From Candidatus Arthromitus sp. SFB-rat-Yit (GTDB lineage: Bacteria; Bacillota; Clostridia; Clostridiales; Clostridiaceae), in the NCBI RefSeq assembly GCF_000283555.1, contig NC_016012.1, forward strand, positions 870,001 through 902,000: a stretch of DNA of 32,000 nt. Reading direction: 5' to 3'. The position numbers and the translations under genes were made by a program. The notes under the pieces are model-generated. The model did not search any database and had not been told where the DNA came from. It saw nothing but the letters and a program-made list of their open reading frames with translations. Below are positions 4,887 to 26,928 of this stretch, piece by piece (the first letter of the stretch is position 1; every line of letters begins with the position of its first letter).

Positions 4887-5534
4887 TTATCTTTTTTGAT
4901 ATACAACTGTTGAAGTTCCACCATTACCTTCATAAGTTTTAGTGATACTATTGCCATCTTCAAGCACAGTAATCTTTGTTGTTGTATTATTCTTAGAGTC
5001 AGTTGTTTTAACCTCTTTTTTAAATTGTGATCCATCTTTAGTATTAGTAACTGTTACTTTCTTAGTTTTAGTTCCTCCGTCAATAGTATTATTACTAGTT
5101 AAAATTGTTGTACTATTACCTTGTTGATTTACAAATATATTTTTAGGAAGTCCATCTTTTGTCTTTGTTTCTATTTTAATCTGTCCTCCTAAGGGCACAC
5201 GAACAATTGTATATGGGCCATTATTAGGATTAATATTTTTTATAATACCATCTCTAGTTATTGTAGTAACATTAGATCCTGGTCTTACATTAAGAGTCTC
5301 GTCTCCCCCAGTACCACCTGTAAATTTTACTTTTACAGCATAACCTCCAAATGTATCTCCATTAATAAAAGGTGATTTACCTAAACCCTGTTTTACACCT
5401 GTCATTAATCTAAGCATAATCTGAGTAACTCCAACCTTCAGACTAGCCTGAGCTTCAACTTTAGTAAACAAACTAAAACAAGACGCTAATCCCACTACTC
5501 CTAAACAACTACCTAAATATTTTTTGTTCATCAT
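4887..5534 (-). CDS. Secreted Thr/Gly/Asn-rich protein of unknown function, paralog P1
   Basis: 215 aa. Signal peptide MMNKKYLGSCLGVVGLASCFSLFTKVEAQA. It shares ordered motifs with P2-P4 (FGG, LNVRPGS, GGQIKIETKTKDGLPK, TTD..NNTTT, C-terminal VVYQKR). GGAG RBS lies 10 nt upstream. There are only 40 bp to P2, so it is probably co-transcribed. Confidence 0.8.
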   Translation of the reverse strand: MMNKKYLGSCLGVVGLASCFSLFTKVEAQASLKVGVTQIMLRLMTGVKQGLGKSPFINGDTFGGYAVKVKFTGGTGGDETLNVRPGSNVTTITRDGIIKNINPNNGPYTIVRVPLGGQIKIETKTKDGLPKNIFVNQQGNSTTILTSNNTIDGGTKTKKVTVTNTKDGSQFKKEVKTTDSKNNTTTKITVLEDGNSITKTYEGNGGTSTVVYQKR

Positions 5535-5574
5535 ATTATGTCAACTCCTATATCCGATTAATAAAATGAGCTAA

Positions 5575-6249
5575 TTAATTATTTTCGTATATGATTACCG
5601 TCTTATCTCCACCATGATATTTAGTAGTAGTACCTTCAGGATTTCTAGTTACAGAACGAGCCGTAAGAGAATTTGAATCTCCAAGTGTCATAGTTACAAC
5701 AAGTGTTGTAGTTGAATCTTTTGTAGGATCAGTTGTTCTAACAGTTTTTGTGAGTTTTGACCCATTTCCACTACCAGTCACCTCATAAAATTTAAACTTA
5801 CTTCCCCCACCTACAGTAGTCTTATAAGTTGAAGCATCTACTGAACCATCACCATTTGGTTTTATAAGCATCGTCTTAGGAGAACCATTACTCGTAGTCG
5901 TATCTATCTTCAATTGACCTCCTGCAGGTAACATAATAGTTTTAGGTCCATTCCCAGTAACATTAATAGGAATATTATCACCATTTCCATTTATCAAAGT
6001 ATATTTAGATCCCGGTCTTAAATTAAGAGCAGAAGTATTATTTCCACTATCGTTCCCAACGAGCGTCTTAATAGAACTTCCTCCAAATACATTCTTTGTT
6101 ATAAATGAATTTCCATTACCCAAACCATATTTAGTCAAAGTGGAAAGAAGAGTAGGTCTAGCCTGAGCTTTAGTTCCAGGCAGAAGGCTACTAACAGCTG
6201 CTACCCCCCCCCATACTCCTAAACAGATTCCCAAATATTTTTTCTTCAT
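5575..6249 (-). CDS. Secreted Thr/Gly/Asn-rich protein of unknown function, paralog P2 (contains the G9 tract)
   Basis: I trimmed the track ORF (5575..6303) to the ATG at 6249, which gives MKKKYLGICLG... and is preceded by GAGGT. The 18 upstream codons fall inside the conserved promoter/leader. Signal peptide ends ...TKAQA. Family motifs are FGG, LNLRPGS, GGQLKID, PKTML, RTTD..STTT, NSLTARSVT and IIYENN. Confidence 0.8.
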   Translation of the reverse strand: MKKKYLGICLGVWGGVAAVSSLLPGTKAQARPTLLSTLTKYGLGNGNSFITKNVFGGSSIKTLVGNDSGNNTSALNLRPGSKYTLINGNGDNIPINVTGNGPKTIMLPAGGQLKIDTTTSNGSPKTMLIKPNGDGSVDASTYKTTVGGGSKFKFYEVTGSGNGSKLTKTVRTTDPTKDSTTTLVVTMTLGDSNSLTARSVTRNPEGTTTKYHGGDKTVIIYENN

Positions 6250-6320
6250 ATGTACTTTAACCTCAATACTTAAATTTTTATTTATTAATAAATTGTAACA
6301 CACTAATGAACAATTTTAAA
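6250..6320 (-). promoter_or_regulatory. Conserved promoter plus 5' leader cassette, copy A (upstream of P2)
   Basis: The minus strand reads ...TTCATTAGTGTGTTACAATTTATTAATAAATAAAAATTTAAGTATTGAGGTTAAAGTACAT-ATG. Extended -10 TGTTACAAT is at 6292..6300 and RBS GAGG at 6261..6264. It is near-identical to 7031..7103. Confidence 0.65.
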
Positions 6321-6355
6321 CCAAAACACCAAAATTAAATAATAAAATAAATCCA

Positions 6356-7030
6356 TTAACTATTTTCATATATAATTGTCATATTAATTCCATCGCTATA
6401 TCTTGTAATCCTCTCTTCTGGAGTTACGGTCACAGAACGAGCTGTACTGTTTGGATTTTCACTACCTCCCGTTACTATAGTAGTTGTTGTCGTTGAATTG
6501 TTCCGATCGTCTGTCTCTCTAATTATTTTTTCCATTTTTGAATCCACTCCCGTACCAGTCACAGTTAAGAACTTAATCTTAAATCCTCCATTATCATTTC
6601 GTTTTGAAGTTGTAAGAGTTACGCTATCAAAGCCAGTTTCTAATAACATAGTCTTAGGCATTCCATCCTTAGTTTTCGTATTTAATTGAACTTTTGAATC
6701 ATTCTGAGTGTTTAAATACATCAACGATCCTTCACCAGCTAAATCCATACTCGTTCTTGTTCCATCTTTATCTATTACAATTACCTTAGTTCCTACTCTC
6801 ACATTAAGAGCCGAAGGATCTCCTCCAGAATTTCCTACACGTATTTTATAAACATTCCCTCCAAATGGACCTCTAGTTAAAAAACCTCTAGACCCACCCA
6901 TCATAAGTTTTACCATACTAGATGTTGCTCCAAGTTTTGGAATAGCTTTAACATCAACTTTTGTCAAAAAACTAAACAAGGACACTATACCCAATGTACT
7001 CAGACAAGTGCCCAAATATTTTTTATTCAT
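6356..7030 (-). CDS. Secreted Thr/Gly/Asn-rich protein of unknown function, paralog P3
   Basis: I trimmed the track ORF (6356..7048) to the ATG at 7030 (MNKKYLGTCLS...), which has the same GAGGT-N10-ATG context as P2. Signal peptide ends ...VDVKA. Motifs are FGG, SALNVRVG, KTKDGMPKTML, RETD..STTTT, NSTARSVT and IIYENS. Confidence 0.8.
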   Translation of the reverse strand: MNKKYLGTCLSTLGIVSLFSFLTKVDVKAIPKLGATSSMVKLMMGGSRGFLTRGPFGGNVYKIRVGNSGGDPSALNVRVGTKVIVIDKDGTRTSMDLAGEGSLMYLNTQNDSKVQLNTKTKDGMPKTMLLETGFDSVTLTTSKRNDNGGFKIKFLTVTGTGVDSKMEKIIRETDDRNNSTTTTTIVTGGSENPNSTARSVTVTPEERITRYSDGINMTIIYENS

Positions 7031-7103
7031 ATGTACTTTAAACCTCAATACTTAAAATATTTTTATTTGTTAATAGATTGTAACACACTAATGAATAAAT
7101 TTA
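7031..7103 (-). promoter_or_regulatory. Conserved promoter plus 5' leader cassette, copy B (upstream of P3)
   Basis: Extended -10 TGTTACAAT is at 7077..7085. The sequence catatgtactttaaacctcaatacttaaaatatttttatttgttaatagattgtaacacactaatgaa aligns with 6247..6310 with only a few substitutions or indels. Confidence 0.65.
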
Positions 7104-7143
7104 AATAAAAATAATAAAAGCATTTTTATTTTGATAATTTGTT

Positions 7144-7193: not shown

Positions 7194-8111
7194 ATGAACA
7201 AGTATTATTTAAAAACTTATATAGCTACATTTGGAGTAATGTCATCTTTTTGTTTTTTACCAAGCATCACTTCTAAAGCCACACCTTTAAGATCTACATC
7301 CAGAATTTTTAATGCTCTTTTAAGATTAGGTACTTCAAACGAATCGTTTGTAAAAAGATTAGGAGGCGGACGAGCTATCCTCACTCTAGATTACTCAGGT
7401 AATGGAAGCGGAAGAGGAATACCTGTACCGCCAAATTCCCTCGTCTTTATTGAAACTAAAGACGGGGTTAAATTAACTTCAACTACCACAAACGAAAAAA
7501 GTAAAAATATTTTATTAGATAGTGGTAGCTTCATCTATTACACTAAATTAAGTAAAAATGGTCAACCTTACAAAACTAAAGTAACAGTTGGGAGCAATTC
7601 CGTTACAGTCACTACACTTAAAAAAACTATTGACGGCTCAACAGTCAAAAAAGTCACAAAATTAACCGAGTCTTCTAATAAATATCCAGCAGGAAAAGTT
7701 CAACAAGACATTCACATGACTCCTTATCAAGGTAATTCTCTTACACATCGTTCGTATCAAAAATTAGATCTACATAATGAAAACAACTATACAAAATATG
7801 AAGAAACCAAAACCCCCGTTCACTTCACATCCAAATATGAAGATCCAAATAAATTAATTACAACAGAAAAACTTCCTGGATTTGATTATAAAAATACATT
7901 AATTAAAGCCACAGGTGAAACTCAAATCCAAGCTACAAATAAATTTGGAAGTGTAGTTACTACTACAAAAGGTGGTATAACTACAATACATAAATTTAAT
8001 ACAAATGGTGATCTAACTAAAGTATCTACTAAATCTCCTTCTGGACGTTCAGAAACAATATATAACTCTAGCGGAGCTATTGAATCTGGATACAAAATAA
8101 CTCACCATTAA
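7194..8111 (+). CDS. Secreted protein, divergent longer paralog P4 of the P1-P3 family with a C-terminal extension
   Basis: 305 aa. Signal peptide MNKYYLKTYIATFGVMSSFCFLPSITSKA. It keeps a recognisable family motif order (LGGG, IETKDG, KTKVTVG.., GNSLTHRSYQ, NYTKYEE), then adds about 75 extra residues with YD-repeat-like beta-hairpin patterns. Confidence 0.75.
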   Translation: MNKYYLKTYIATFGVMSSFCFLPSITSKATPLRSTSRIFNALLRLGTSNESFVKRLGGGRAILTLDYSGNGSGRGIPVPPNSLVFIETKDGVKLTSTTTNEKSKNILLDSGSFIYYTKLSKNGQPYKTKVTVGSNSVTVTTLKKTIDGSTVKKVTKLTESSNKYPAGKVQQDIHMTPYQGNSLTHRSYQKLDLHNENNYTKYEETKTPVHFTSKYEDPNKLITTEKLPGFDYKNTLIKATGETQIQATNKFGSVVTTTKGGITTIHKFNTNGDLTKVSTKSPSGRSETIYNSSGAIESGYKITHH

Positions 8112-8119
8112 ACAAAAAC

Positions 8120-8150
8120 AAAAAGCAAGTACGATATGTACTTGCTTTTT
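8120..8150. terminator. Bidirectional terminator between P4 (+) and the ABC exporter operon (-)
   Basis: AAAA - AGCAAGTAC - gatat - GTACTTGCT - TTTT. Confidence 0.75.
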
Positions 8151-8163
8151 ATATCTTTGAGCT

Positions 8164-12164: not shown

Positions 12165-13901
12165 ATGATTGAGGTAATTATAAATGATAAAAAAATATCA
12201 TCTGAAAAAGGAAAAACCATTTTGCAAATAGCTAAAGATAATAATATAGAAATTAAAACATTGTGTTTTCTAGAGGATTGTCTAAATGTAAATCGTTGTG
12301 GTACTTGTATGGTTGAAATTGAAGGAAGTGGGGATGTCGTTCATGCTTGCTCAACTCTAGCTGAAGATGGAATGTCAATAAGAACAGACAGCGAAAAAGT
12401 GTCCGAAAAAATAAAAGAGAATATATCAAAAATTCTCGATTCTCATAACTTTACTTGTGGTAAATGTAAACGTCGTGAAACTTGTGAACTCTTACCTTTG
12501 GTTGTTCAAACCAAAGCTAGAGCATCCAAACCATTTATTGTAAAAAATCATGAAGAATACATAGACAATAGAAGTAAATCTATAGTTTTAGATAGATCAA
12601 GATGTATAAAATGCGGAAGATGTGTTGCAACTTGTAAAGAACGAGTTGGAACTGATTCAATAATTTTTCATGATGTAAATGGTGAAATTGTTGTTGGTCC
12701 ACAACATTTAGATTGTTTTGATGATACAAACTGTATACTTTGTGGACAGTGCGTAAATATTTGCCCTGTTGATGCTCTATATGAAAAATCACACATTGAA
12801 AGAGTAAAGGAGGCTCTTGAAAATCCAGATATTCATGTTATAGCAGCTATGGCCCCATCCGTTAGAACTTCTTTAGGTGAATTATTTAAGATGGATTACG
12901 GAATAGATGTTACAAATAAAATTTACACTGCTTTAAGAAAAATTGGATTCGATAAAATATTTGATATAAATTTCGGTGCAGATTTAACTATAATGGAGGA
13001 AGCAACAGAATTTGCAAACAAAATAAGAAGTAACAATACAAATTTCCCAATGTTTACATCCTGCTGTCCTGCTTGGGTAAGACTCGCTGAAAATCATTTT
13101 CCAGAACTTTTGGATAATCTTTCTTCAACAAAATCACCTCAACAAATTTTCGGTGCTGCAAGTAAGTCATACTACCCTTCAATAGAAAATCTTGATCCAA
13201 AAAAAGTATTTACTGTAACTATAATGCCTTGTACTGCTAAGAAATTTGAGGCAGATAGACCTGAGATGATTAATAACGGAGTGCGAAATATTGATGCTGT
13301 TATAACTACTCGTGAGTTTGGAAGAATGTTAAAAGAATTAAAAATAGATTTCGCATCTCTTGAAGATGGAGAATTAGATGAGGCTATGGGACTTTATACC
13401 GGTGCTGGAGCAATCTTTGGAGTTACTGGTGGAGTTATGGAAGCAGCCTTAAGAAGTGCGAAAGATATGCTTGAAAATAAAGATCTTGATAAAATTGAAT
13501 ATAAAGATGTTCGTGGATTCGAAGGAATTAAAGAAGCAACTGTTGAAATTAACAATAAAGAATATAACGTAGCCGTTGTTAATGGTGCATCTAACTTCTT
13601 CAAAATGATGAAAGACAATCTTCTTGATAAAAAACAATATCACTTTATCGAAGTCATGGCTTGTTATGGTGGATGTATAAATGGTGGAGGGCAACCTTAT
13701 GTTACACCTAAAATGAGAAACAAAATTGATTACAAAAAATTACGTGGAAATGTCCTATATAATCAAGACAAAAATTTAAAATATAGAAAATCACACCAAA
13801 ACCCTGCCTTATTAAAAATGTATAAAACTTACATGGGAACACCTGGTGAAGGATTAGCACACGAAATATTGCACCAAAAATACAAAAAGAAAGAGAATTA
13901 A
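12165..13901 (+). CDS. hydA: [FeFe]-hydrogenase, CpI-type (M3 architecture)
   Basis: 578 aa. N-terminal 2Fe-2S ferredoxin-like Cys pattern. His-ligated cluster motif HNFTCGKCKRRETC. Two 4Fe-4S motifs, CIKCGRCVATC and CILCGQCVNICP. H-cluster signatures are TSCCPAW, MPCTAKKFE and EVMACYGGCINGGGQP. GGAGG RBS lies 7 nt upstream. Confidence 0.95.
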   Translation: MIEVIINDKKISSEKGKTILQIAKDNNIEIKTLCFLEDCLNVNRCGTCMVEIEGSGDVVHACSTLAEDGMSIRTDSEKVSEKIKENISKILDSHNFTCGKCKRRETCELLPLVVQTKARASKPFIVKNHEEYIDNRSKSIVLDRSRCIKCGRCVATCKERVGTDSIIFHDVNGEIVVGPQHLDCFDDTNCILCGQCVNICPVDALYEKSHIERVKEALENPDIHVIAAMAPSVRTSLGELFKMDYGIDVTNKIYTALRKIGFDKIFDINFGADLTIMEEATEFANKIRSNNTNFPMFTSCCPAWVRLAENHFPELLDNLSSTKSPQQIFGAASKSYYPSIENLDPKKVFTVTIMPCTAKKFEADRPEMINNGVRNIDAVITTREFGRMLKELKIDFASLEDGELDEAMGLYTGAGAIFGVTGGVMEAALRSAKDMLENKDLDKIEYKDVRGFEGIKEATVEINNKEYNVAVVNGASNFFKMMKDNLLDKKQYHFIEVMACYGGCINGGGQPYVTPKMRNKIDYKKLRGNVLYNQDKNLKYRKSHQNPALLKMYKTYMGTPGEGLAHEILHQKYKKKEN

Positions 13902-13918
13902 ATATTCTCTTTCTTTTT
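13884..13918. terminator. 15-bp perfect inverted repeat spanning the overlapping hydA and hydF stop codons (probable bidirectional terminator)
   Basis: AAAAAGAAAGAGAAT (13884..13898), loop TAAAT, then ATTCTCTTTCTTTTT (13904..13918). I checked this base by base. hydA TAA is at 13899..13901 and hydF TAA (reverse complement) is at 13898..13900. Confidence 0.6.
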
Positions 13919-15100
13919 AAATATCTCTATCGCTCTATCAAGTATTCCAGTCAAATAGGCTATTACAACTCCATAATTTGTGATACTAATCCCTTTCTCT
14001 CCACAAAAATTAACACGATTAATAACACTTTTCCTATTTATCATACAGGCACCGCAATGTATAACCAAATCATACTCATCAAGATTATCAGGAAAATCAT
14101 TACCAACATAAAAATCATATTTTAATTCATAACCAACATGCTTATTTAACAATTTTGGGATTTTAAACCTCCCAATATCTTCATGTGAAACATTATGACT
14201 ACAACTCTCTGCAATCAATATTTTTGAATCTTTGTTCAATTCTTCAATCTTTCTAACTCCATCAACAAAACTTTTTAAATTCCCTTTATGCCTTGCAAAC
14301 AAAATTGAAAAACTGGTTAAAGGTATATTTTTTGGCACAACTTCCGAAACTTTTTTAAAAACTTGAGAATCTGTTATAACAAGATCAATATCTTTCAAAT
14401 CCTTCAGTCCATCTTCAAGTTCTGTATCTCTTAAAACATAGCTTTTTATCCCATGATCCAAACAATCACGAATACATTGAACTTGTGGAAGAATTATTCT
14501 ACCCTTTGGTGCCTCGGAATCTATAGGTACAACCATAACAACCTTACTATTATAAGGAAGAATATCTCCAATTATTGGAATTTCATACTCAGATTCACTA
14601 AAAATTTGGATAATTCTATTTTTTAAATTTTCAATACCTTCACCACTCTCGGTTGATACAAATATAAAATCATTAAAATCTTTAGAAATCTCTTCACGAT
14701 CCGAATCTTTTAATAAATCAGCTTTATTTATAACAACAATATGAGGAACATTAAATTTTTTAAAATTAATCCTCATTTTCTCATACGAATCTTTATCCAA
14801 ATCCATACAATCAAAAACATATATAGAAAGATCTACTCTCTTTAAAGTATCATATGTTTTGTTAAATCTTAAACTCCCAAGTTCACTATCATCGTCACTC
14901 CCAGCTGTATCTATAAATAAAACAGGCCCTATCGGTATAAATTCCATTGGTTTTGAAACTGGATCTGTCGTAGTGCCACCTATTGGTGAAACAATGGAAA
15001 CATTTTGATCCATAATTTTATTAATTAAAGAAGATTTTCCAACATTTGTTTTCCCATAAATCCCAATGTGCTTTCTATTAGCATTCGGAGTACTAAACAT
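13898..15100 (-). CDS. hydF: [FeFe]-hydrogenase maturation GTPase HydF
   Basis: 400 aa. G1 motif GKTNVGKSSLIN and NKAD G4 motif. C-terminal cluster-binding pattern is ESCSHNVSH...VIHCGACM (CxH...HCxxC). 8-bp overlap with the hydG stop. Confidence 0.9.
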   Translation of the reverse strand: MFSTPNANRKHIGIYGKTNVGKSSLINKIMDQNVSIVSPIGGTTTDPVSKPMEFIPIGPVLFIDTAGSDDDSELGSLRFNKTYDTLKRVDLSIYVFDCMDLDKDSYEKMRINFKKFNVPHIVVINKADLLKDSDREEISKDFNDFIFVSTESGEGIENLKNRIIQIFSESEYEIPIIGDILPYNSKVVMVVPIDSEAPKGRIILPQVQCIRDCLDHGIKSYVLRDTELEDGLKDLKDIDLVITDSQVFKKVSEVVPKNIPLTSFSILFARHKGNLKSFVDGVRKIEELNKDSKILIAESCSHNVSHEDIGRFKIPKLLNKHVGYELKYDFYVGNDFPDNLDEYDLVIHCGACMINRKSVINRVNFCGEKGISITNYGVVIAYLTGILDRAIEIFKKKENI

Positions 15101-16469
15101 ATAAATCTCTTTCTCCCTTCCTTAATCTATCTATCCTATCTTCAACCATATCACGCACATGCTTCTTTTCAAAATCATTTTTAATATTATCAATAAGTCC
15201 ATTAACTTGATTCATAATCTCATCATCACCATAATCAAGTGCATATTCTACTAAACTCATCAAAGCATTCGGTTCACAAACATTTTGTATTTGCCCAGTC
15301 TTAGCAAGACTCATAAATCTTTCACCAGTTCTACCCTTTCTATAACAAGCAGTACAATAACTAGGAATGTAACCATCATTCACAAGTTCCTTTAAAACTT
15401 CGAGAGGACTTCTATCATCACAAGTTTCAAACTGGTTAACATTTTTTCTATCCTCTTTTTCTTTATATCCACCAACTCCTGTTACAGAACCTGCACTAAT
15501 TTGAGAAACACCATATCTAAGAAGTTCTCTCCTCATTTCCTTATTTTCCCTAGTAGACAGAATTATACCAGTAAACGGAACAGCTATCCTTATGACCGCA
15601 ACAATTTTTTTGAAAGTTTCGTCATCTAAAACATTTGGAAAATCCTCGAGATTCATTCCTTCAGCCTTTTTAAGACGTGGTACAGAGATTGTATGAAAAC
15701 CTACTTTAAACTTTTCTTCCAAATACTCATTATGTAACATAAGTGCCAAAACCTCAAATTTAGGATCAGCTAAACCAAATAAAACCCCCGCACCAACATC
15801 ATCAATTCCTGCTTCCATAGCTCTGTCAAATGAATTCAAATGATAATTATAATCTCCCTTTATTGATTTCGGATGCATCTTTTCATATGTTGGCTTGTGA
15901 TAAGTTTCTTGAAACAATATATAAGTTCCTATGTTCGCATCTTTCAACTTTCTATAATTTTCAACAGTAGTAGCTGCAATATTTACATTTATACGTCTAA
16001 TCTCTCCATTATCATTTTGAGTTTTATAAATAGTATCAATACATTCTAAAATATAATCAATAGGAACATTTATAGGATCTTCTCCAACTTCAAGTGCAAG
16101 CCTTTTATGCCCCATACTCTCTAAAATCTTAACTTCATTCCTAATCTCATCTTGAGTTAATTTTCTTCTCTCAAATTTGTTATCTCTCCTATAACCACAA
16201 TACAAACAGTTATTAACACAATGATTACTAACATACAACGGAGCAAACATAACTATTCTCTTACCATAAATAGACTCCTTTATCCCTCCTGCAATTTTAT
16301 AAATACTTTCTAATTGATTCTTATCTTCAACCTGAAGAAGTATTGCAACTTCCTTATGATTAAGTCCTTCTTTCTTTTTAGCCTTATCAATTACAAATTG
16401 AACATCATCTTTTGATGCGGATTTGCTTTCATTTAAAATTTTTTCTATATAATCATGATCAATGAACAT
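15093..16469 (-). CDS. hydG: [FeFe]-hydrogenase maturase HydG (radical SAM tyrosine lyase)
   Basis: Radical-SAM motif CVNNCLYCGY and C-terminal auxiliary-cluster motif CTACYRKGRTGERF. I moved the start from the track's 16502 to the ATG at 16469 (MFIDHDYIEKIL...), which is preceded by GGAGGAG. Confidence 0.9.
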   Translation of the reverse strand: MFIDHDYIEKILNESKSASKDDVQFVIDKAKKKEGLNHKEVAILLQVEDKNQLESIYKIAGGIKESIYGKRIVMFAPLYVSNHCVNNCLYCGYRRDNKFERRKLTQDEIRNEVKILESMGHKRLALEVGEDPINVPIDYILECIDTIYKTQNDNGEIRRINVNIAATTVENYRKLKDANIGTYILFQETYHKPTYEKMHPKSIKGDYNYHLNSFDRAMEAGIDDVGAGVLFGLADPKFEVLALMLHNEYLEEKFKVGFHTISVPRLKKAEGMNLEDFPNVLDDETFKKIVAVIRIAVPFTGIILSTRENKEMRRELLRYGVSQISAGSVTGVGGYKEKEDRKNVNQFETCDDRSPLEVLKELVNDGYIPSYCTACYRKGRTGERFMSLAKTGQIQNVCEPNALMSLVEYALDYGDDEIMNQVNGLIDNIKNDFEKKHVRDMVEDRIDRLRKGERDLYV

Positions 16470-16491
16470 AACTACTCCTCCTAAATAAAAA

Positions 16492-17601
16492 TTAAAATCC
16501 AAGTATACTATTTATAGAAACTTGTTGTTCATCATACTGTTTAACATCTGGATTATCATGACTCCACTTTACATTGTCACCCCTAGTTATTGCAACCTCA
16601 AAACCCGCATTATTAATTCTTCTCTCTATACATTTTCTACATTCTGCTGCTTCATCACCAGTACAAATTTTACCATCATAAAGAGCATATTTTTCTCTAA
16701 CATTTGTAGGAGATAAATTCGGCATAACAACATTTCCTCCAGCCTTTATTCCCTTTTCTCTTCCTAACTTATCAATACTTCCAAGAGCTGTTGTTGCAGG
16801 TAATAAAACATTAGGTAAAAGCAATCTAACAAGTGCAAGCATAATCACTGTATCTTCCAAAGTTCCAGCTGGATATTCACCAAGAGATGTCTCTTTTTGA
16901 GGTATAAACGGACCAATGCCACACATATGAGGCTCAATTTCCTTAACAAATCTTAAATCCTTAACTAAATCTCTTTTTGTTTGCCTAGGTAATCCAACCA
17001 TAAATCCAGCACCAAACTGATACCCTATCTCTTTAAGATTATAAAGACACTTTATTCTATCTCCAAAAATTTCTCCAGGATGAAGCCACTCATACAATTC
17101 TTTTGAAGCAGTTTCATGCCTTAACAAATATCTATCTGCCCCAGCATCAAACATTTTTTTATAAGAATCATAACTTCTTTCACCTAAAGATAACGTTATT
17201 GCATTATTAGGAAACATTTCCTTAATTCCTCTTATGATTTCAATCATTCTTTCATCAGTAAAATAAGGATCTTCCCCTCCTTGCAACACATAAGTTTTAT
17301 ATCCAAGCCTATCTCCAATAACCGCACACTCCATTATTTGATCATAGGTAAGCCTATATCTATCTGCATTTTTATTTTTACCTTGTATACCACAATACTC
17401 ACAATTTTTCTTACAATAATTCGTAAATTCAATAAGACCTCTCATAAAAACTTTATTCCCATAAGTTCTCATTCTAGTTTCATGTGACTTTTCTATCAAA
17501 TATTCTTTACTATCCTCATCAATATTTTCCAAAATATATAAAAGCTTCTCGTCTGAGAGATTATTAAATTCAAACAACTCATCAATATATCCTTTAATCA
17601 C
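16492..17601 (-). CDS. hydE: [FeFe]-hydrogenase maturase HydE (radical SAM)
   Basis: 369 aa with CKKNCEYCGI (CxxxCxxC), BioB-like, first gene of the hydE-hydG-hydF operon. GTG start is preceded by AAGGAGAG. Confidence 0.9.
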   Translation of the reverse strand: MIKGYIDELFEFNNLSDEKLLYILENIDEDSKEYLIEKSHETRMRTYGNKVFMRGLIEFTNYCKKNCEYCGIQGKNKNADRYRLTYDQIMECAVIGDRLGYKTYVLQGGEDPYFTDERMIEIIRGIKEMFPNNAITLSLGERSYDSYKKMFDAGADRYLLRHETASKELYEWLHPGEIFGDRIKCLYNLKEIGYQFGAGFMVGLPRQTKRDLVKDLRFVKEIEPHMCGIGPFIPQKETSLGEYPAGTLEDTVIMLALVRLLLPNVLLPATTALGSIDKLGREKGIKAGGNVVMPNLSPTNVREKYALYDGKICTGDEAAECRKCIERRINNAGFEVAITRGDNVKWSHDNPDVKQYDEQQVSINSILGF

Positions 17602-19721: not shown

Positions 19722-20954
19722 TTATGATTCATCCTTAACATATCCCATAATTATCCAAAATATAATTCCAATTAAACTTGGTGTATAGACCAACACAGAT
19801 TCAAACATACCTATAAACAAAAAACTAAGTACAGCAGAATACAAAACTATGTAATTAAATTTATCTATGTTTTTTCTCAATATTTTGTAGATTCTTATAA
19901 GATAGACGACTATAAACGAAACAAACAATACTAATGCCACACTACCATAAGATAATAAAATATCAAGAAAAGTATTATGAGTTCCTCCCTCTTTTACTCC
20001 AGATAAAAATCTTATAGTGCTATTATCTAAAACATTTATAGAGTGCGTCTTAGAATATCCAAATAAAATGTTATTTTTAATAATTGTTAAAACTTGCTCC
20101 CAAATTTCATATCTTCCATTCAATAACTTAACCAACAAAGTATTGTTAATTAACAAATATATCGAAAATAAACAACACCCTACAAAAAACGTTATAACTA
20201 TCCACTTCTTTTTAAACGTTATCGCTGTAAACACAAAACAAAATACTAAAAATGCAATAACAGCACTACGTGCACTAACCAAAAACAACATTATAATCGA
20301 CAATATAACATTAATTATCGCTATCTTCTTAAACAAAATTTCTTTATAATAATTCAAAAATATAAACGAGAATACAATACCAATAAAACAAATTATACCT
20401 AAAATATTTTCATTATCGTAAATACCCGTAAAAGATCCATCAAAATGAAATCCATAAACCTTAGTTAAAACAAACCTAACCTTAAATATGTAAAAAATTA
20501 TACTAAATATATGTGATATAAAACAAACACCCAATATAACTGTGGAGAGTATTTTTAATTTAATATCCTTATTTTTATTAATAACATTAAAAAATATAAA
20601 AAATTGAAACATTCCTAATAAAATAAGCTTTATTTCATTTATATACTCACCAAAACTATACGAATTTAAATACATGCTAACAACCGTAGAAAATAAAAAC
20701 AATATAAATACACAATTATAAAAAGTGAATTCAAACTTGTTTTTGTATACAGAATAAACAAATATCAAAATAAATACTACGTAAAATAAATAATTTAATA
20801 TACTCACAATATGTGACAATTCACCTATTATACTGACATAAGAAAAATTAAATATCAAATATACCAATGTTATATAAAATTTAACCATATCAAAATCTAA
20901 TTTAAGTCTGTCCCCTGCTGGCTGTAAATCTTTTGATTCTAATCTTTTAAACAC
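19722..20954 (-). CDS. O-antigen ligase / Wzy-type polymerase-like polytopic membrane protein
   Basis: 410 aa with about 10 or more hydrophobic helices and a larger loop (NSTIRFLSGVKEGGTHNTFLDILLSYG) typical of the Wzy_C/O-antigen ligase family. It is the last gene of the glycan cluster. The start is uncertain: a Met at codon 23 is an alternative. Confidence 0.6.
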   Translation of the reverse strand: MFKRLESKDLQPAGDRLKLDFDMVKFYITLVYLIFNFSYVSIIGELSHIVSILNYLFYVVFILIFVYSVYKNKFEFTFYNCVFILFLFSTVVSMYLNSYSFGEYINEIKLILLGMFQFFIFFNVINKNKDIKLKILSTVILGVCFISHIFSIIFYIFKVRFVLTKVYGFHFDGSFTGIYDNENILGIICFIGIVFSFIFLNYYKEILFKKIAIINVILSIIMLFLVSARSAVIAFLVFCFVFTAITFKKKWIVITFFVGCCLFSIYLLINNTLLVKLLNGRYEIWEQVLTIIKNNILFGYSKTHSINVLDNSTIRFLSGVKEGGTHNTFLDILLSYGSVALVLFVSFIVVYLIRIYKILRKNIDKFNYIVLYSAVLSFLFIGMFESVLVYTPSLIGIIFWIIMGYVKDES

Positions 20955-22093
20955 GTTACATACACGTCCTTTAATTTATCTATGATAATACTTTTTTCGA
21001 AATTATTTAAGAAATAACTATGTATAGTTGTATAATTATATTTATTAATATTAAGAATCATTTGTACTATAGCTTTAGATAAATTCTCCTTACTGTTTGT
21101 ATCTACTAATATGCCAACATCATCTATAATAATATCCTCAGCTCCTCCATTTTTTACTCCTATAACTGGTTTCCCACAAGCCAAAGCTTCTATATATACA
21201 ACACCAAAAGTTTCATACGAAGATGCCAAAATAAACGCATCACATTTATTCATATAAAATGCAACTTCATCTCTACTAAGAATTCCCAAAAGCTTAACAT
21301 AATTATGCAATTTTTTATCATTAATTTTCTTCTCTAATTCATCTCTTAAATATCCGTCTCCACCTATTTCTAATACAAAATCATATCCTATATCAATTAG
21401 ATATCCGCAAGAATCTATTAAATTTTCGAACCCTTTACCCCTAACCAAAAAACCTAACGTAAAAAATGTAAATCTAAGATTGCGGTGCATTTCTTTTAAA
21501 ATTTTAAACTTATTTCCATCAATAAAATTATGTATAACACTTATATCATTTTTTACAAACTTCCCTAACTCTTTTTTCAAAGAATTACTCACACTTACCA
21601 ATCTGTCTGCACTATTGTACGAGTCATAAATATATTTCAAATAACTTTTCTTAATATTACTTGCATAACTTATACCAGTATGCTCAGTTAAAACATATGG
21701 TATATTAAATTTTTCCTTTATATACGGAGCACATATACCTGCCCAAAAACAAGAATGAAAATGAAATACATCTATTTTACCTTTATCAGCAATAACTCTA
21801 TTTATTAATTTTTCAATCCTCTTGGCAAATACATTAAATCTCATACTACTATGTAATAAATAATTAAAATTTTTGTATCTGTATGTATCTAATCCATCCT
21901 CAATATCAAATGTTATCTTTTTACTAAATATTGTCTTAAATTCATCATAACAATATATCGGCAAAATTTCATTATAACAAATAGTAATATTTTCACCATG
22001 CTCTTTAAGTGCCTGTGCCTGTTCTTTAAAGAAACTACCTAAAACTTTATTTTTCCTGTTTGAATACCATGACGGTATAACCACAATATGCAT
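20939..22093 (-). CDS. Glycosyltransferase family 4 (GT-B, retaining)
   Basis: 384 aa. The C-terminal region ETFGVVYIEALACGKPVIGVKNGGAEDII fits the E-x7-E motif of GT4 enzymes. Confidence 0.8.
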   Translation of the reverse strand: MHIVVIPSWYSNRKNKVLGSFFKEQAQALKEHGENITICYNEILPIYCYDEFKTIFSKKITFDIEDGLDTYRYKNFNYLLHSSMRFNVFAKRIEKLINRVIADKGKIDVFHFHSCFWAGICAPYIKEKFNIPYVLTEHTGISYASNIKKSYLKYIYDSYNSADRLVSVSNSLKKELGKFVKNDISVIHNFIDGNKFKILKEMHRNLRFTFFTLGFLVRGKGFENLIDSCGYLIDIGYDFVLEIGGDGYLRDELEKKINDKKLHNYVKLLGILSRDEVAFYMNKCDAFILASSYETFGVVYIEALACGKPVIGVKNGGAEDIIIDDVGILVDTNSKENLSKAIVQMILNINKYNYTTIHSYFLNNFEKSIIIDKLKDVYVTCLKD

Positions 22094-22105
22094 AGATAAA
22101 CTCCG

Positions 22106-23371
22106 CTAAATATTTAAAAATTTAGATAACCTTGATAAAACCATGCTACTATTAAACTCATCTCTATTAAACTCAATACCTCTATTAAAATTCTTCAAAA
22201 TATTAACCATAATTTTCGTTATATCTTCACATTTATTAAGACAACAATATACTCCATCTACCTTATTAGATAATTTATACAACGGATCATCATAATCTTC
22301 AAGTATTACTAAGATAATCGCATTCGAACCCATATAATCATAAATCTTAGCTGGTATTTGTGAAAATTCTTTATTGCCAAATACAAGAAGTATATCTGCA
22401 TTAACAATCATATTTATAATTTCAATGTATGAAACACGTGATTTCAATCTTATAATACTTTTATTAACTAATTCCTTTTGATCTACATCATTTATACTTC
22501 CAACAAAATTTACATTTAAACTTTCAAACACACCTAAAGAACTTTTTTGTATTAATTTCAATGCTTTAACAAACTCGTTTACATTTCTTACACCTTTGAC
22601 AATATCGCCAGCATACAATATATTAATTTTATCAAATTCGAATTCAACAGGATAATTTTTTTTGGAATCAGCATATAATTTCTTATCAAATCCTCTATGG
22701 ATTATCTCCATAGATTTTGGCATTAAGCCATATTCTTCTCTATAATATTCCATATTATTTTCAGTTACAAACAGAAACCTATCACTGTTATTCACTATCT
22801 TATTCTCAATTATTTTGTTAAAAATTTTTGGAATAATACCTCTATTTCTTCTACTTATCTCATTGCAATAAGGATCACTAAAGTATGATACAAGTCGCAC
22901 ATTTTTATTATACTTCTTAACTATTTTTTTAATTTTATACGCACAAATCAAACTAGATGGAGGTTCATGCATACCAATAATAATATCAAAATTTATATCA
23001 CTTAAATATTTTTTAAAATATTTACAAGCATTATTAATCCAAGAAGTATATGGATCGACAATAACAATTTTATTTTTAATCCAAATTAAACGCTTAGATT
23101 TCTTATGTGTTTCATTTTCAGAAATCTTTTTTTTAGGTAGCATCTTATTTAATATAAAACTTCCATTGACTCTATGTACAACCACATCTTTATTTACAAA
23201 CTTGGATAGTTCACTATCATAGTAAATACTATTACTAGGAAAATCTAAAGTTAAAAGATGTATTTTAACTTTCTTGTTACTAGCAAGTAAATTCATATAA
23301 TAAACAAGCTCTATGCTGGCAGAATTGTTTATATCAACTGAGTAACAAGAAACAAATAAAATATTACTCAT
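22106..23371 (-). CDS. Hypothetical protein, possibly a divergent GT-B-fold glycosyl/glycerophosphotransferase
   Basis: 421 aa and soluble. It is embedded between tagA-family and GT4 genes, with an 8-bp overlap with the upstream gene. I recognise no diagnostic motif. The functional call rests on context only. Confidence 0.35.
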   Translation of the reverse strand: MSNILFVSCYSVDINNSASIELVYYMNLLASNKKVKIHLLTLDFPSNSIYYDSELSKFVNKDVVVHRVNGSFILNKMLPKKKISENETHKKSKRLIWIKNKIVIVDPYTSWINNACKYFKKYLSDINFDIIIGMHEPPSSLICAYKIKKIVKKYNKNVRLVSYFSDPYCNEISRRNRGIIPKIFNKIIENKIVNNSDRFLFVTENNMEYYREEYGLMPKSMEIIHRGFDKKLYADSKKNYPVEFEFDKINILYAGDIVKGVRNVNEFVKALKLIQKSSLGVFESLNVNFVGSINDVDQKELVNKSIIRLKSRVSYIEIINMIVNADILLVFGNKEFSQIPAKIYDYMGSNAIILVILEDYDDPLYKLSNKVDGVYCCLNKCEDITKIMVNILKNFNRGIEFNRDEFNSSMVLSRLSKFLNI

Positions 23372-24104
23372 TACTACCTTTAAAATGATATTTAAAACTT
23401 CGTATCATAAATTTAGGTATGCTAATTAATCGTACTATTCTCACTGGCTCTTTCGATACTCTATAAAGCCACTCCAATCCCAAATTTATCATTATTTTTG
23501 GAGCTCTATTAAGCTTTCCAGCATACAAATCAAAACTACCTCCAACTCCCATAAATAATTTGCAATTGAACAAATCTATATATTTATTTATAAAAACATC
23601 TTGGCGTGGACTACCCATAGCAACAAGTACAACATGTGGTTCGCTTTTCATTATTCTTTGAGAAACACCATCTGAATCATTCCCAAAATACCCATCATCA
23701 TATCCAGCAATTTTTATATTAGGATATTTTTTTGATATATTATTAACAGCTAATAATATATTTTCGTTCGTGCTGCCTACAAAATAAATTTTCAATAATT
23801 GTTCGTTGCAAATTTTTAAAACTTCATCCATTATATCAATCCCAGCAATCTTAGAAATCCTTATTTTATTTAATATCTTTAAGAGCATCGTTATACCCAC
23901 ACCATCCGGTATAATAATACTATCATCTCTACAAAAATACTTTTTAAGAGAACTATCATTCAATCCATTAAATAAGACCTCCGGATTACCAGAAACTATG
24001 TTTAATTTTTGATTTCCATTTGACAATAAATGTTTTCGTATTATATGTACCAAGTCATTTTTACTTCCTGTGTATATTTTGTATCCCGTTAAGTTTGTAT
24101 ACAT
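23364..24104 (-). CDS. tagA: WecB/TagA/CpsF-family glycosyltransferase (N-acetylmannosaminyltransferase-like)
   Basis: 246 aa. VLVAMGSPRQDVFI...FMGVGGSFDLYAGKLNRAPK...GLEWLYRVSKEP matches family signature blocks. Confidence 0.8.
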   Translation of the reverse strand: MYTNLTGYKIYTGSKNDLVHIIRKHLLSNGNQKLNIVSGNPEVLFNGLNDSSLKKYFCRDDSIIIPDGVGITMLLKILNKIRISKIAGIDIMDEVLKICNEQLLKIYFVGSTNENILLAVNNISKKYPNIKIAGYDDGYFGNDSDGVSQRIMKSEPHVVLVAMGSPRQDVFINKYIDLFNCKLFMGVGGSFDLYAGKLNRAPKIMINLGLEWLYRVSKEPVRIVRLISIPKFMIRSFKYHFKGSNE

Positions 24105-24112
24105 AATTCAAC

Positions 24113-25177
24113 TTATAAAATTAACTTTTCTAACTCCTTTAAAATTTCATCATTCTTGTTTATTCCACGAGCTATTTCAAAATATTTTTTAACATTCTCC
24201 ATATCATTCAATTTTAAATAACTCATTATCATATTTGTACAAGATTCTATCGAATTTGTAACTTTAAATACTTTCTCAAAATATCTTATAGCATGAGAAT
24301 ACATTCCAAGAGCTGCATAATTCAATCCCAATTCATTTACGACCTCAACAATATCGCTATCTATTCTCCTAGAATTCTCTAAATAATAAATTGCTTGTTG
24401 ATGCATATTTAGTTTCCTGTGTGCTACAGCAATATAGTAATATATTAAAGCATCATTTTTAAACATATCAATTAATGGAATTAATTTTTCTAATGCTTCT
24501 TTAGGTGAAGAATATATTTTTTCTTTACCATCCTGATAATTTTTGCATGACATTAGATGCTCTTTAAATTCTTTTACTCCTTTCTCATCTTGATCTTTAT
24601 ATTTTCCTATGCTTTCAAGTGCAAGTACATAGTTTCCCTCATCTCTTTCAATCATTGCCTTATATAAATATACCTTATTAAATGTTCTATAATTTTTTAT
24701 TGCATCATCAATATGAAATTTTAATTCTGAATTAAAAAATTCATCCTTGTCTTTTAAATTTATCAAAACTACTATTAACTTTTCCTTGTACTCATCATTA
24801 AAATAAATTTTGCACAATCCCTTTAACATTATGTAAGCTTCAAATAATTCATCTTTTTGAATTAATGAATATATGTACCCCTTATAAAACTCCTGACTAT
24901 TGTCAAAATTTAATATTATTTCTTCATAGTAATTATTGTATATAAAATTTTCATTTCCCCCGATGCATAAGAGCATTCCTACAAAAAACTTATCCATAGT
25001 AAGCTCACTACTCTTAGGATTATTTTTATCTGTTATAAGTTTTAAGTCTACAGGGAAAAGCACATCTTTACCCTGTAACTCTTTATACAAATAAGGACTT
25101 ATTTTGTCTAAAATTTTCAAATCTTTTAACTCAATAAATATTAAATTCGAAAGTCTTTCATTAATATTATAACCCAT
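24113..25177 (-). CDS. TPR-repeat protein
   Basis: Repeated 34-aa A/Y/L-pattern helices, for example ALIYYYIAVAHRKLNMHQQAIYYLENSRRID and ELGLNYAALGMYSHAIRYFEKVFKV. I moved the start from 25204 to the ATG at 25177 (GGAG RBS 5 nt upstream), which removes the overlap with pgcA. Confidence 0.7.
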   Translation of the reverse strand: MGYNINERLSNLIFIELKDLKILDKISPYLYKELQGKDVLFPVDLKLITDKNNPKSSELTMDKFFVGMLLCIGGNENFIYNNYYEEIILNFDNSQEFYKGYIYSLIQKDELFEAYIMLKGLCKIYFNDEYKEKLIVVLINLKDKDEFFNSELKFHIDDAIKNYRTFNKVYLYKAMIERDEGNYVLALESIGKYKDQDEKGVKEFKEHLMSCKNYQDGKEKIYSSPKEALEKLIPLIDMFKNDALIYYYIAVAHRKLNMHQQAIYYLENSRRIDSDIVEVVNELGLNYAALGMYSHAIRYFEKVFKVTNSIESCTNMIMSYLKLNDMENVKKYFEIARGINKNDEILKELEKLIL

Positions 25178-25191
25178 GTTTACTCCTAATT

Positions 25192-26928
25192 TTAATCCAT
25201 ACATTTCTTTATTAAATTTAATACATTTTCTTCAAACTCTTCCATCTTAGCAGATATATCTTCCTTACTATTACTTCTAACGCTCATATAAAATTTAATC
25301 TTCGGTTCCGTTCCCGAAGGTCTAGCTGCAAACCAACTTCCATCTCCAAACAAAACTTTCAAAACATTCGATGAAGGTAAATCTATTTTACTTTTTATAT
25401 TATTTATCACATCTTTTTCCACTCCACATTTATAATCTTGGACCTTAACTGTAATCATATTTTCAATATCAATTCGATCCATCCTTCTCAATTTTTCCAG
25501 ACAATTAGAGATCTTATCTTGCCCTTCTTTACCACTCAACTCCATAGAAACTAATTTTTCAAGCGAGAAACCATATTTACTATATAAACATTCCAAAGCA
25601 TCACATAAAGTTTTTCCATTCTTTTTATAATACAACGTCATCTCTGCTATAATATTCGTTGCAATAACAGCATCTTTATCTCTCACAAAATCCCCTAGTA
25701 AATATCCATAACTCTCTTCAAATCCAAAAATATATTCTCCGCTATTATCACTTTCAAACTCTTTTATCTTTTCTCCTATATATTTAAAACCAGTTAATAC
25801 CTCAATTAAATTAACCCCATAACAACTACAAATATTTTTAATAACGTCAGTTGTTACAATAGTTTTAATAATAGTAGATTTGTTATTAAGTTTTCCTTGC
25901 TCCTTCAAAGAACACAATATATACTCAGATAATAAAATTCCTATTTGATTACCCGTAAAAAATTTATACTCACCATTTTTATCTCTAGATACAACTCCTA
26001 CTCTATCGCAATCTGGATCAGTTGCTAAAATCAAATCGCTATTATTTTGATTAGCTAATTTTATAGATAAATCAAACACATCCTCAAGTTCAGGGTTCGG
26101 ATATGATACAGTAGGAAAATTTCCATCAGGATTACTTTGTTCTTTTACAACTTCAACATTAATATACCCTAATTCATCTAGAACTTTTGTAACTGGAACA
26201 AGACCAGATCCATGAAGTGGGGTATACACTATTTTTAATTCTTGGCTATGATTCTTAACCAAATCTTTTCTTATAACCAAGCTTTTAACTTTATCAAAAT
26301 ATTTCCTATCTATTTCTTCCCCTATATACTCAAGTTTAAGTTCATTAATAGCTTCATCTTCTCTTAAAATATTTATATCTTCAAATATGTCAACCTCACA
26401 TATTTTTTCATAAACTTCATTCGCTAGCTCATCTGTTAATTGACCTCCATCCTCTCCATAAACCTTATAACCATTATATTCCTTAGGATTATGTGAGGCT
26501 GTTATAACAACCCCTCCCTTACACTTAAGTTCCCTAAGTGCAAAAGAAAGCATAGGAGTTGGTCTCAAACTTTCATACAAATAAACTTTTATACCATTAG
26601 TCGCAAAAATAAGTCCCGCCCTTTTCGCAAACTCACTAGATTTATTTCTTGAATCATATGCTATAGCCACACTTATATCTTGATTCTTATATTTATCTTT
26701 CAAAAAATTTGCATACCCTTGTGTAACCTTACCTACTGTGTAAATATTAATCCGATTTATACCAGATCCAATTATACTTCTAAGTCCACCTGTTCCAAAT
26801 TCTAACTCTTTATAAAATCTATCTTCTAATTCCTTTTCGTCTAAATCATATATTTCTTTTTTATAATCTTCGCTAATATTATTAGATGACAACCACTTAT
26901 CTGCCAACTTTTTATACAAAATTACCAC
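25192..26928 (-). CDS. pgcA: Phosphoglucomutase / phosphomannomutase (alpha-D-phosphohexomutase family, PgcA-like)
   Basis: 578 aa with active-site loop TASHNPKEYNGYK and metal-binding ATDPDCDRVG. The codon at 26928 is GTG. A TTG at 26919 with GAGGTG 6 nt upstream is an equally plausible start. Confidence 0.9.
   Translation of the reverse strand: MVILYKKLADKWLSSNNISEDYKKEIYDLDEKELEDRFYKELEFGTGGLRSIIGSGINRINIYTVGKVTQGYANFLKDKYKNQDISVAIAYDSRNKSSEFAKRAGLIFATNGIKVYLYESLRPTPMLSFALRELKCKGGVVITASHNPKEYNGYKVYGEDGGQLTDELANEVYEKICEVDIFEDINILREDEAINELKLEYIGEEIDRKYFDKVKSLVIRKDLVKNHSQELKIVYTPLHGSGLVPVTKVLDELGYINVEVVKEQSNPDGNFPTVSYPNPELEDVFDLSIKLANQNNSDLILATDPDCDRVGVVSRDKNGEYKFFTGNQIGILLSEYILCSLKEQGKLNNKSTIIKTIVTTDVIKNICSCYGVNLIEVLTGFKYIGEKIKEFESDNSGEYIFGFEESYGYLLGDFVRDKDAVIATNIIAEMTLYYKKNGKTLCDALECLYSKYGFSLEKLVSMELSGKEGQDKISNCLEKLRRMDRIDIENMITVKVQDYKCGVEKDVINNIKSKIDLPSSNVLKVLFGDGSWFAARPSGTEPKIKFYMSVRSNSKEDISAKMEEFEENVLNLIKKCMD

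Follow-up and report, generated by a model that had tools for sequence, protein, structure and literature searches.

A nine-G tract in the signal-peptide codons of a secreted SFB protein: slippage-prone and strain-variable, but probably incidental

Does a run of nine identical bases near the start of a gene for a secreted protein act as a switch of that gene in segmented filamentous bacteria (SFB)? Intragenic poly-G tracts close to the 5' end of genes for exported proteins are a well-known kind, and the locus described here, which lies within a stretch of 32,000 nucleotides of the SFB-rat-Yit genome (the window, to which all coordinates refer), had been predicted to be a candidate slipped-strand switch. 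Direct reading confirmed nine consecutive C residues on the plus strand at 6204-6212, which are G9 on the minus strand, the coding strand of the gene P2. Codons 12-16 of P2 are GTA-TGG-GGG-GGG-GTA (V12-W13-G14-G15-V16), as had been described, while the position of the tract within the reading frame, given as nucleotides 37-45, was off by one and is nucleotides 38-46. The tract is a real, evolutionarily young, and strain-specific homopolymer. It appears not to be maintained by selection as a contingency switch, and we regard it as probable that it is an incidental, transient slippery site in a gene that is kept ON by purifying selection. The features of P2 are as follows.

5575..6249, minus strand: P2 coding sequence, ATG at 6249..6247 and stop at 5575, 224 amino acids plus stop
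6160..6249, minus strand: putative Sec-type signal peptide, P2 codons 1-30, from sequence inspection
6204..6212, minus strand: G9 homopolymer, P2 nucleotides 38-46, consisting of the last G of TGG (Trp13), GGG (Gly14), GGG (Gly15), and the first G of GTA (Val16)
6292..6320, minus strand: promoter-like site upstream of P2, TTTAAA-17-TACAAT with a TG extension, a consensus match only
7077-7105: near copy of this promoter-like site upstream of P3, a consensus match

The start codon of P2 has a GAGG 11 nt upstream. The N terminus consists of the MKKK n-region and the hydrophobic YLGICLGVWGGVAAVSSLL, followed by PGTKAQA-R with A-Q-A (residues 28-30) before the predicted cleavage site. By inspection P2 has a basic n-region, a hydrophobic h-region, and small residues at -3/-1; Ala30 is nearly invariant in the alignment of the family, and residues 10-30 have pLDDT values below 50 in the AlphaFold model. 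This points to a Sec-type (signal peptidase I) signal peptide and supports the placement of the tract within signal-peptide codons of a secreted protein. The AF2 model of P2 is all-beta (pLDDT 80, pTM 0.77), and a Foldseek search with it against the PDB gave no match above a TM score of 0.3. P2 is taken to be an exported, beta-rich protein of a single clade, the SFB. The regions upstream of P2 and P3 (6230-6334 and 7011-7119) are about 87% identical over about 109 bp and each contain a TG-extended TACAAT -10-like element, and each of the two paralogs seems to have its own, duplicated promoter. P2 has three paralogs in the window.

4887..5534, minus strand: paralog P1, 215 amino acids, signal-peptide codons without homopolymer
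6356..7030, minus strand: paralog P3, 224 amino acids from its ATG, signal-peptide codons without homopolymer
7194..8111, plus strand: paralog P4, 305 amino acids, divergently oriented, with a C-terminal extension

P1 and P3 are about 40% and P4 is 27% identical to P2. The original prediction had noted that P1 and P3 do without a homopolymer in the equivalent stretch of the signal peptide, which is correct and holds for P4 as well. A profile of the family found 11 proteins in few clusters among 1.84 billion representative proteins, and the credible matches among these 11 are all small secreted proteins of the P2 type. The weak profile matches to SprB and to the ankyrin-repeat giants (P0013, P0016) were judged to be compositional, and these proteins are not regarded as relatives. 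A scan of genome contigs with the N-terminal motif of the family alignment gave no match. The secreted SFB proteins assigned to Cluster.1 and Cluster.3 by Pamp et al. 2012 have C-terminal conserved regions similar to PF13946 (DUF4214) (PMC3371716). P1-P4 are not counted among them, as no Pfam match was found for any of the four at E<=0.01, and they are treated as a separate family. By sequence comparison P1-P4 thus appear as a four-gene family of small secreted proteins restricted to SFB.

The cluster of the four genes sits between a pair of ABC-transporter genes and two M16 peptidase genes. The ABC transporter is 77% identical to that of Candidatus Dwaynia gallinarum and 72% to that of a Candidatus Arthromitus MAG. 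In a distant Arthromitus MAG (L004 11800-12071) the ABC and M16 neighbours abut and the family cluster is absent. A mouse-like SFB (L049 3279-6675) has a rearranged and highly diverged family cluster at the syntenic locus, with members of 308, 206, and 224 amino acids and two small ORFs, between neighbours whose proteins are 84-89% identical. Most likely, the cluster is a lineage-specific island of fast turnover at a conserved site. At this locus the signal-peptide codons of the family members of the mouse-like SFB are free of homopolymers. A perfect hairpin of 14-15 bp with T runs on both sides (8118-8152) separates the converging genes for the ABC transporter and P4 and is likely a bidirectional terminator. 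Further away, the window contains an [FeFe]-hydrogenase gene adjoining maturase genes (HydF and HydG/HydE-like radical SAM proteins; 12165-17601) and a cell-envelope glycosyltransferase/Wzy cluster (19722-25204), both of which are ordinary housekeeping context.

How unusual is such a tract? No other G/C homopolymer in the window, which has a GC content of 28.9%, exceeds five bases, and order-0 and order-1 models predict 0.007-0.016 C/G runs of at least nine per 32 kb. Scaled to the genome of 1.516 Mb, the same models predict about 0.35-0.7 such runs, and G9 is therefore unusual locally but no outlier genome-wide. The rarity that had been claimed for the tract thus applies to the window, whereas at the scale of the genome a tract of this kind is expected by chance about once in every one or two genomes. 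This bears on the reading that G9 is a strain-specific phase-variable allele by which a secreted, host-exposed protein is reversibly turned ON and OFF, with G4AG4 being the locked-ON form elsewhere as in gonococcal pgtA, which we consider possible but doubtful. Against it stand the chance expectation and the lack of a second tract, both in the 32 kb and in the homologues from another SFB. The run exists because the adjacent codons for Gly14 and Gly15, which lie in the hydrophobic core of the signal peptide, are both GGG in some rat-SFB lineages. GGG accounts for 12.6% of the Gly codons and GGA for 49%. Mutation bias in AT-rich genomes favours changes from G to A.

Slippage by one unit would have immediate consequences for the reading frame.

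6201..6203, minus strand: TAG directly after the tract, enters the frame with one G lost (G8), stop at codon 16, product of 15 amino acids
6191..6193, minus strand: TAG, enters the frame with one G gained (G10), stop at codon 20, product of 19 amino acids

Early truncation by a slip of one base in either direction, as had been predicted, was thereby reproduced in silico, and this immediate stop is a point in favour of phase variation. Changes of three keep the frame, and G6, G9, and G12 all give the full-length protein in silico. A one-unit change in length would turn P2 off, presumably in a reversible manner. In Neisseria, poly-G/C tracts of at least seven are taken as capable of phase variation (PMC2193922), and G9, lying inside the ORF, is above this threshold. 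In Campylobacter jejuni, tracts of G8-G11 switch at 1e-4 to 4e-3 per division, and G9 at 2e-4 to 1.2e-3 (PMC3401435). By analogy to these tracts, and because a slip of one base truncates P2, OFF cells should arise at an elevated rate in G9 populations, and G9 would be expected to yield OFF cells and revertants far above the rate of base substitution, at a rate that depends on mismatch repair. C. jejuni is generally regarded as lacking mismatch repair. For SFB we found no literature report of repeat-mediated phase variation and nothing relevant on mismatch repair. ON/OFF switching is accordingly to be seen as mechanically possible in those strains that have G9, and the capability is not conserved among strains.

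The frameshifts have one further consequence. In G8 or G11 the ATG within GT-ATG-G (6212-6225) joins the frame of the P2 body, and translation from it would give a product of 212-213 amino acids without the n-region of the signal peptide. The AGGAG upstream of this ATG is 1 nt away, too close for normal initiation, and the internal ATG is probably irrelevant. Two other roles of the tract were dropped: an intramolecular G-quadruplex needs more than one G9 run, and programmed transcriptional slippage would lead into a second frame that encodes nothing.

Genomes of the period in which SFB-rat-Yit was sequenced were often determined by pyrosequencing. It could be supposed that G9 is an artefact of sequencing or assembly and that the true sequence has another length or is interrupted. 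The Logan assembly of DRR001117, which is from the strain of the window, differs from the window by a single base in 11.4 kb, and this base is in another homopolymer: at 7495-7500 in P4 (plus strand) the window has A6 and the Logan assembly A5. Calls of homopolymer lengths in these data are thus not fully reliable. With A5, P4 is broken up into two ORFs of 107 and 131 amino acids, and the other strains have A6 and the intact P4 of 305 residues; the difference reflects either an error in sequencing the homopolymer or true heterogeneity of a second family member. At the P2 tract, however, the Logan assembly has G9 like the window, and G9 keeps the ORF in frame and gives a product that is collinear with all orthologues. 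G9 is also found in ERZ27288293, ERZ27288302, and ERR2167783, which come from other sources and have a divergent haplotype, and an artefact of a single assembly cannot account for its presence in independent assemblies of such a haplotype. We regard an artefact as extremely improbable.

The comparison of tract lengths among strains included 14 public assemblies that span the tract, collected from contigs encoding members of the 90% P2 cluster and from contigs found via P3 and P1. They have three tract states, all in frame.

G9, five assemblies, two haplotypes: the window; DRR001117 (same strain); ERZ27288293; ERZ27288302; ERR2167783
G6, one assembly: SRR19621095 (L032), V-W-G-V, one Gly codon less, in frame
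G4AG4, eight assemblies, three haplotypes: JGI 3300013414; six SRR159705xx runs; SRR30814247; W-G-G-V kept with Gly14 as GGA (synonymous GGG>GGA)

The length of the tract is therefore not invariant. What had been predicted as a variable tract is variable insofar as G9 and G6 differ in length and G4AG4 is broken, but an out-of-frame length is found in none of the 14 assemblies. Because G4AG4 is present in eight of the 14 assemblies and three of the five divergent haplotypes, the uninterrupted homopolymer is not maintained, and a tract that is broken in most haplotypes speaks against phase variation. The orthologues that write W-G-G-V with GGA also bear out the claim that the tract is dispensable for the protein sequence.

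The strain with G6 provides the best indication that the tract is mutable. Over the block of P3, P2, and P1 including the spacers (2,147 bp, 4887-7033), SRR19621095 and the window are 100% identical without a single mismatch except for the loss of three bases in the tract, while the flanks (ABC, P4, and M16) are 1.4-4.4% different. With G6 as the sole change in an otherwise identical block, the tract has to mutate much faster than ordinary sites there, and the comparison of G6 with G9 bears the signature of slipped-strand mutability. Such a difference in length between near-identical strains is what phase variation would leave. On the other side, it is the only length change seen and it is a multiple of three. 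The route from G9 to G6 could have led via OFF intermediates, which counts against the tract being merely incidental. Among the ACA-ACA-ACA repeat of P1 (a Thr run), an in-frame indel of 3 nt at 4983-4985 distinguishes the strains and is a second small polymorphism of the slippage type in the cluster.

The distribution of G9 over the haplotypes can be read either way. The three assemblies ERZ27288293, ERZ27288302, and ERR2167783 (L037-L039) share a common haplotype, which differs from the window by 23 nt in P2. In a four-point test the window groups with L001 and L033 groups with L037, and G9 and G4AG4 do not sort with this haplotype tree. The middle base of the tract must therefore have changed at least twice or have been moved by recombination. 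In addition, the two G9 haplotypes are not sisters and have different 5' variants beside the tract, so that G9 has either originated or been retained on more than one occasion. The presence of G9 in two divergent, non-sister haplotypes supports phase variation and counts against an incidental run.

If the tract was switching, OFF alleles might be expected, and from a frameshifted allele gene prediction would be expected to list an ORF of reduced length. No out-of-frame length was found in any of the six uninterrupted tracts, a small sample of consensus sequences from about three to four independent sources. A word-indexed search of 5.8 billion proteins retrieved a single 90% cluster of P2 with seven members, all of full length, and no truncated variants of P2. 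For the two G9 haplotypes the ORF products of the G7, G8, G10, and G11 versions were built, and none of these eight predicted out-of-frame products was present among about 15 billion proteins. Scans of metagenome contigs with a DNA pattern allowing any tract length and with the P2 protein gave no match from either. The absence of OFF alleles and products from the assemblies and from the protein collection weighs against phase variation; as consensus assemblies would leave a minority of OFF cells invisible, the result means that in none of the sampled hosts do OFF cells form the majority.

P2 is nevertheless the kind of gene in which a switch could be expected. Between strains, pN/pS is 0.7-2.8 for P2-P4, whereas the ABC and M16 genes on either side have values of 0.03-0.15; the counts are small, but the direction is consistent. 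This suggests relaxed or diversifying selection on P2-P4, as expected for host-exposed proteins, and fast-evolving host-exposed proteins are the gene class where contingency switches evolve. Values around or above 1 would be compatible with immune pressure, under which bet-hedging pays, and are thus in favour of phase variation. The synonymous churn at the Gly codon, in turn, fits fast-evolving exposed proteins. In other strains the synonymous divergence is 0.30-0.46 in the M16 genes and 0.01-0.03 in the P block, and the cluster seems to have been exchanged among rat-SFB lineages by recombination.

Alternatively, selection might act on the protein or its translation, on a kink formed by the two Gly residues or a pause at rare codons within the signal peptide, and the mutability of the DNA would be beside the point. 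W-G-G-V is conserved in all alleles of nine nucleotides, Gly15 is nearly invariant across the family, and GGG is a rare codon. However, Gly14 is encoded by GGA in most strains, so that the pair of rare codons is not conserved, and the strain with G6 drops a Gly altogether. The P2 orthologues with the stretch of nine nucleotides (6204-6214) are one residue longer (W-G-G) than every other family member, which also speaks against selection at this level. Such a role is therefore very unlikely. The G6 allele brings back the signal-peptide length that is typical of the family, and the extra Gly of P2 may have arisen by a +3 slip.

We thus return to G9 as an incidental slippery site. In most lineages GGA at the first Gly breaks the run into G4AG4, and where the run is uninterrupted it would be a hot spot for slipped-strand mutation. 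In one strain the run would have contracted to G6 with the loss of one Gly from the signal peptide and an intact frame. A gain or loss of one G is expected to stop translation at codon 16 or 20, and selection, as far as it is visible at the consensus level, would keep P2 ON, a rapidly evolving and probably host-exposed protein. This account is favoured by the fact that most haplotypes, the paralogs, and the homologues of a mouse-like SFB lack the tract, by GGG being a disfavoured codon, and by the sole fixed change in length being one that keeps the frame. Counting against it, G9 is the modal length of proven phase-variable tracts in the AT-rich C. jejuni (PMC3401435), and the dimorphism of poly-G and interrupted alleles is like that in the proven phase-variable pgtA of gonococci (PMC2193922). 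The prediction of a slipped-strand switch therefore stands in part: the tract is slippage-prone and variable among strains and a slip of one base truncates P2, but the 14 assemblies have no out-of-frame allele, the tract is not conserved, and there is no other in the window. That P2 is a phase-variable secreted antigen in some rat-SFB lineages, with G4AG4 locking it ON in sister lineages, we consider unlikely.

As commensals that induce Th17 and IgA responses in the intestine, SFB are the textbook example, and we know of nothing that has been described on stochastic switching of antigens in these bacteria. If P2 were phase variable, segmented filamentous bacteria would have their first repeat-mediated contingency locus, and P2 would belong to a family with pN/pS above 1 that is presumably under host immune pressure. 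A non-culturable commensal attached to the epithelium would then share the bet-hedging trick of mucosal pathogens, and the slippery and the locked form would constitute a natural pair of alleles for mono-associated rats. As the evidence stands, the context of the tract is more useful: P1-P4 evolve fast at non-synonymous sites compared to their neighbours and seem to have been exchanged between strains, and in this setting the poly-G run is one short-lived product of mutation.

Among the known systems, the opa genes of Neisseria have pentamer CTCTT repeats in the signal-peptide region, present in every member of the family. They are like P2 in that the repeat is in leader-peptide codons within a paralogous family of exposed proteins. 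P2, in contrast, has a mononucleotide run, in one of four paralogs and in some strains only. With respect to the position of the tract the closest likeness is pilC of Neisseria gonorrhoeae, in which, as far as Jonsson et al. 1991 is cited in PMC2193922, a G homopolymer is in the signal-peptide codons of an exported or surface protein, and slippage by one base puts translation out of frame and ends it close to the N terminus. This likeness is an argument for phase variation of P2. According to the same citation, however, there is experimental proof that pilC switches and many isolates have out-of-frame lengths, while P2 has none among the 14 assemblies; and unlike the host of pilC, SFB are Gram-positive, AT-rich commensals. 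Gonococcal pgtA resembles P2 in its dimorphism within the species, an uninterrupted G tract versus a stretch broken by substitution with frame and protein kept, the poly-G allele being phase variable and the GGGAGCGGGG allele constitutive (PMC2193922). In pgtA, though, isolates have 9 to 20 G including OFF lengths, reporter fusions showed switching, and the type of allele correlates with the form of disease (PMC2193922), whereas P2 has only 9 and 6, both ON, and its interruption is, unlike that of pgtA, a single synonymous A. The likenesses to pgtA and pilC thus indicate how the P2 tract could work and are no evidence that it does. Finally, Campylobacter jejuni is similarly AT-rich (about 30% GC) and has intragenic G tracts with a modal length of nine, the length of the P2 tract, in genes for surface determinants (PMC3401435, PMC4965091). 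Strain NCTC11168 has 29 poly-G/C loci, which are conserved between strains and variable in phase (PMC3401435, PMC4965091), whereas SFB have a single tract in 32 kb that is at about the number expected by chance per genome and is not conserved.
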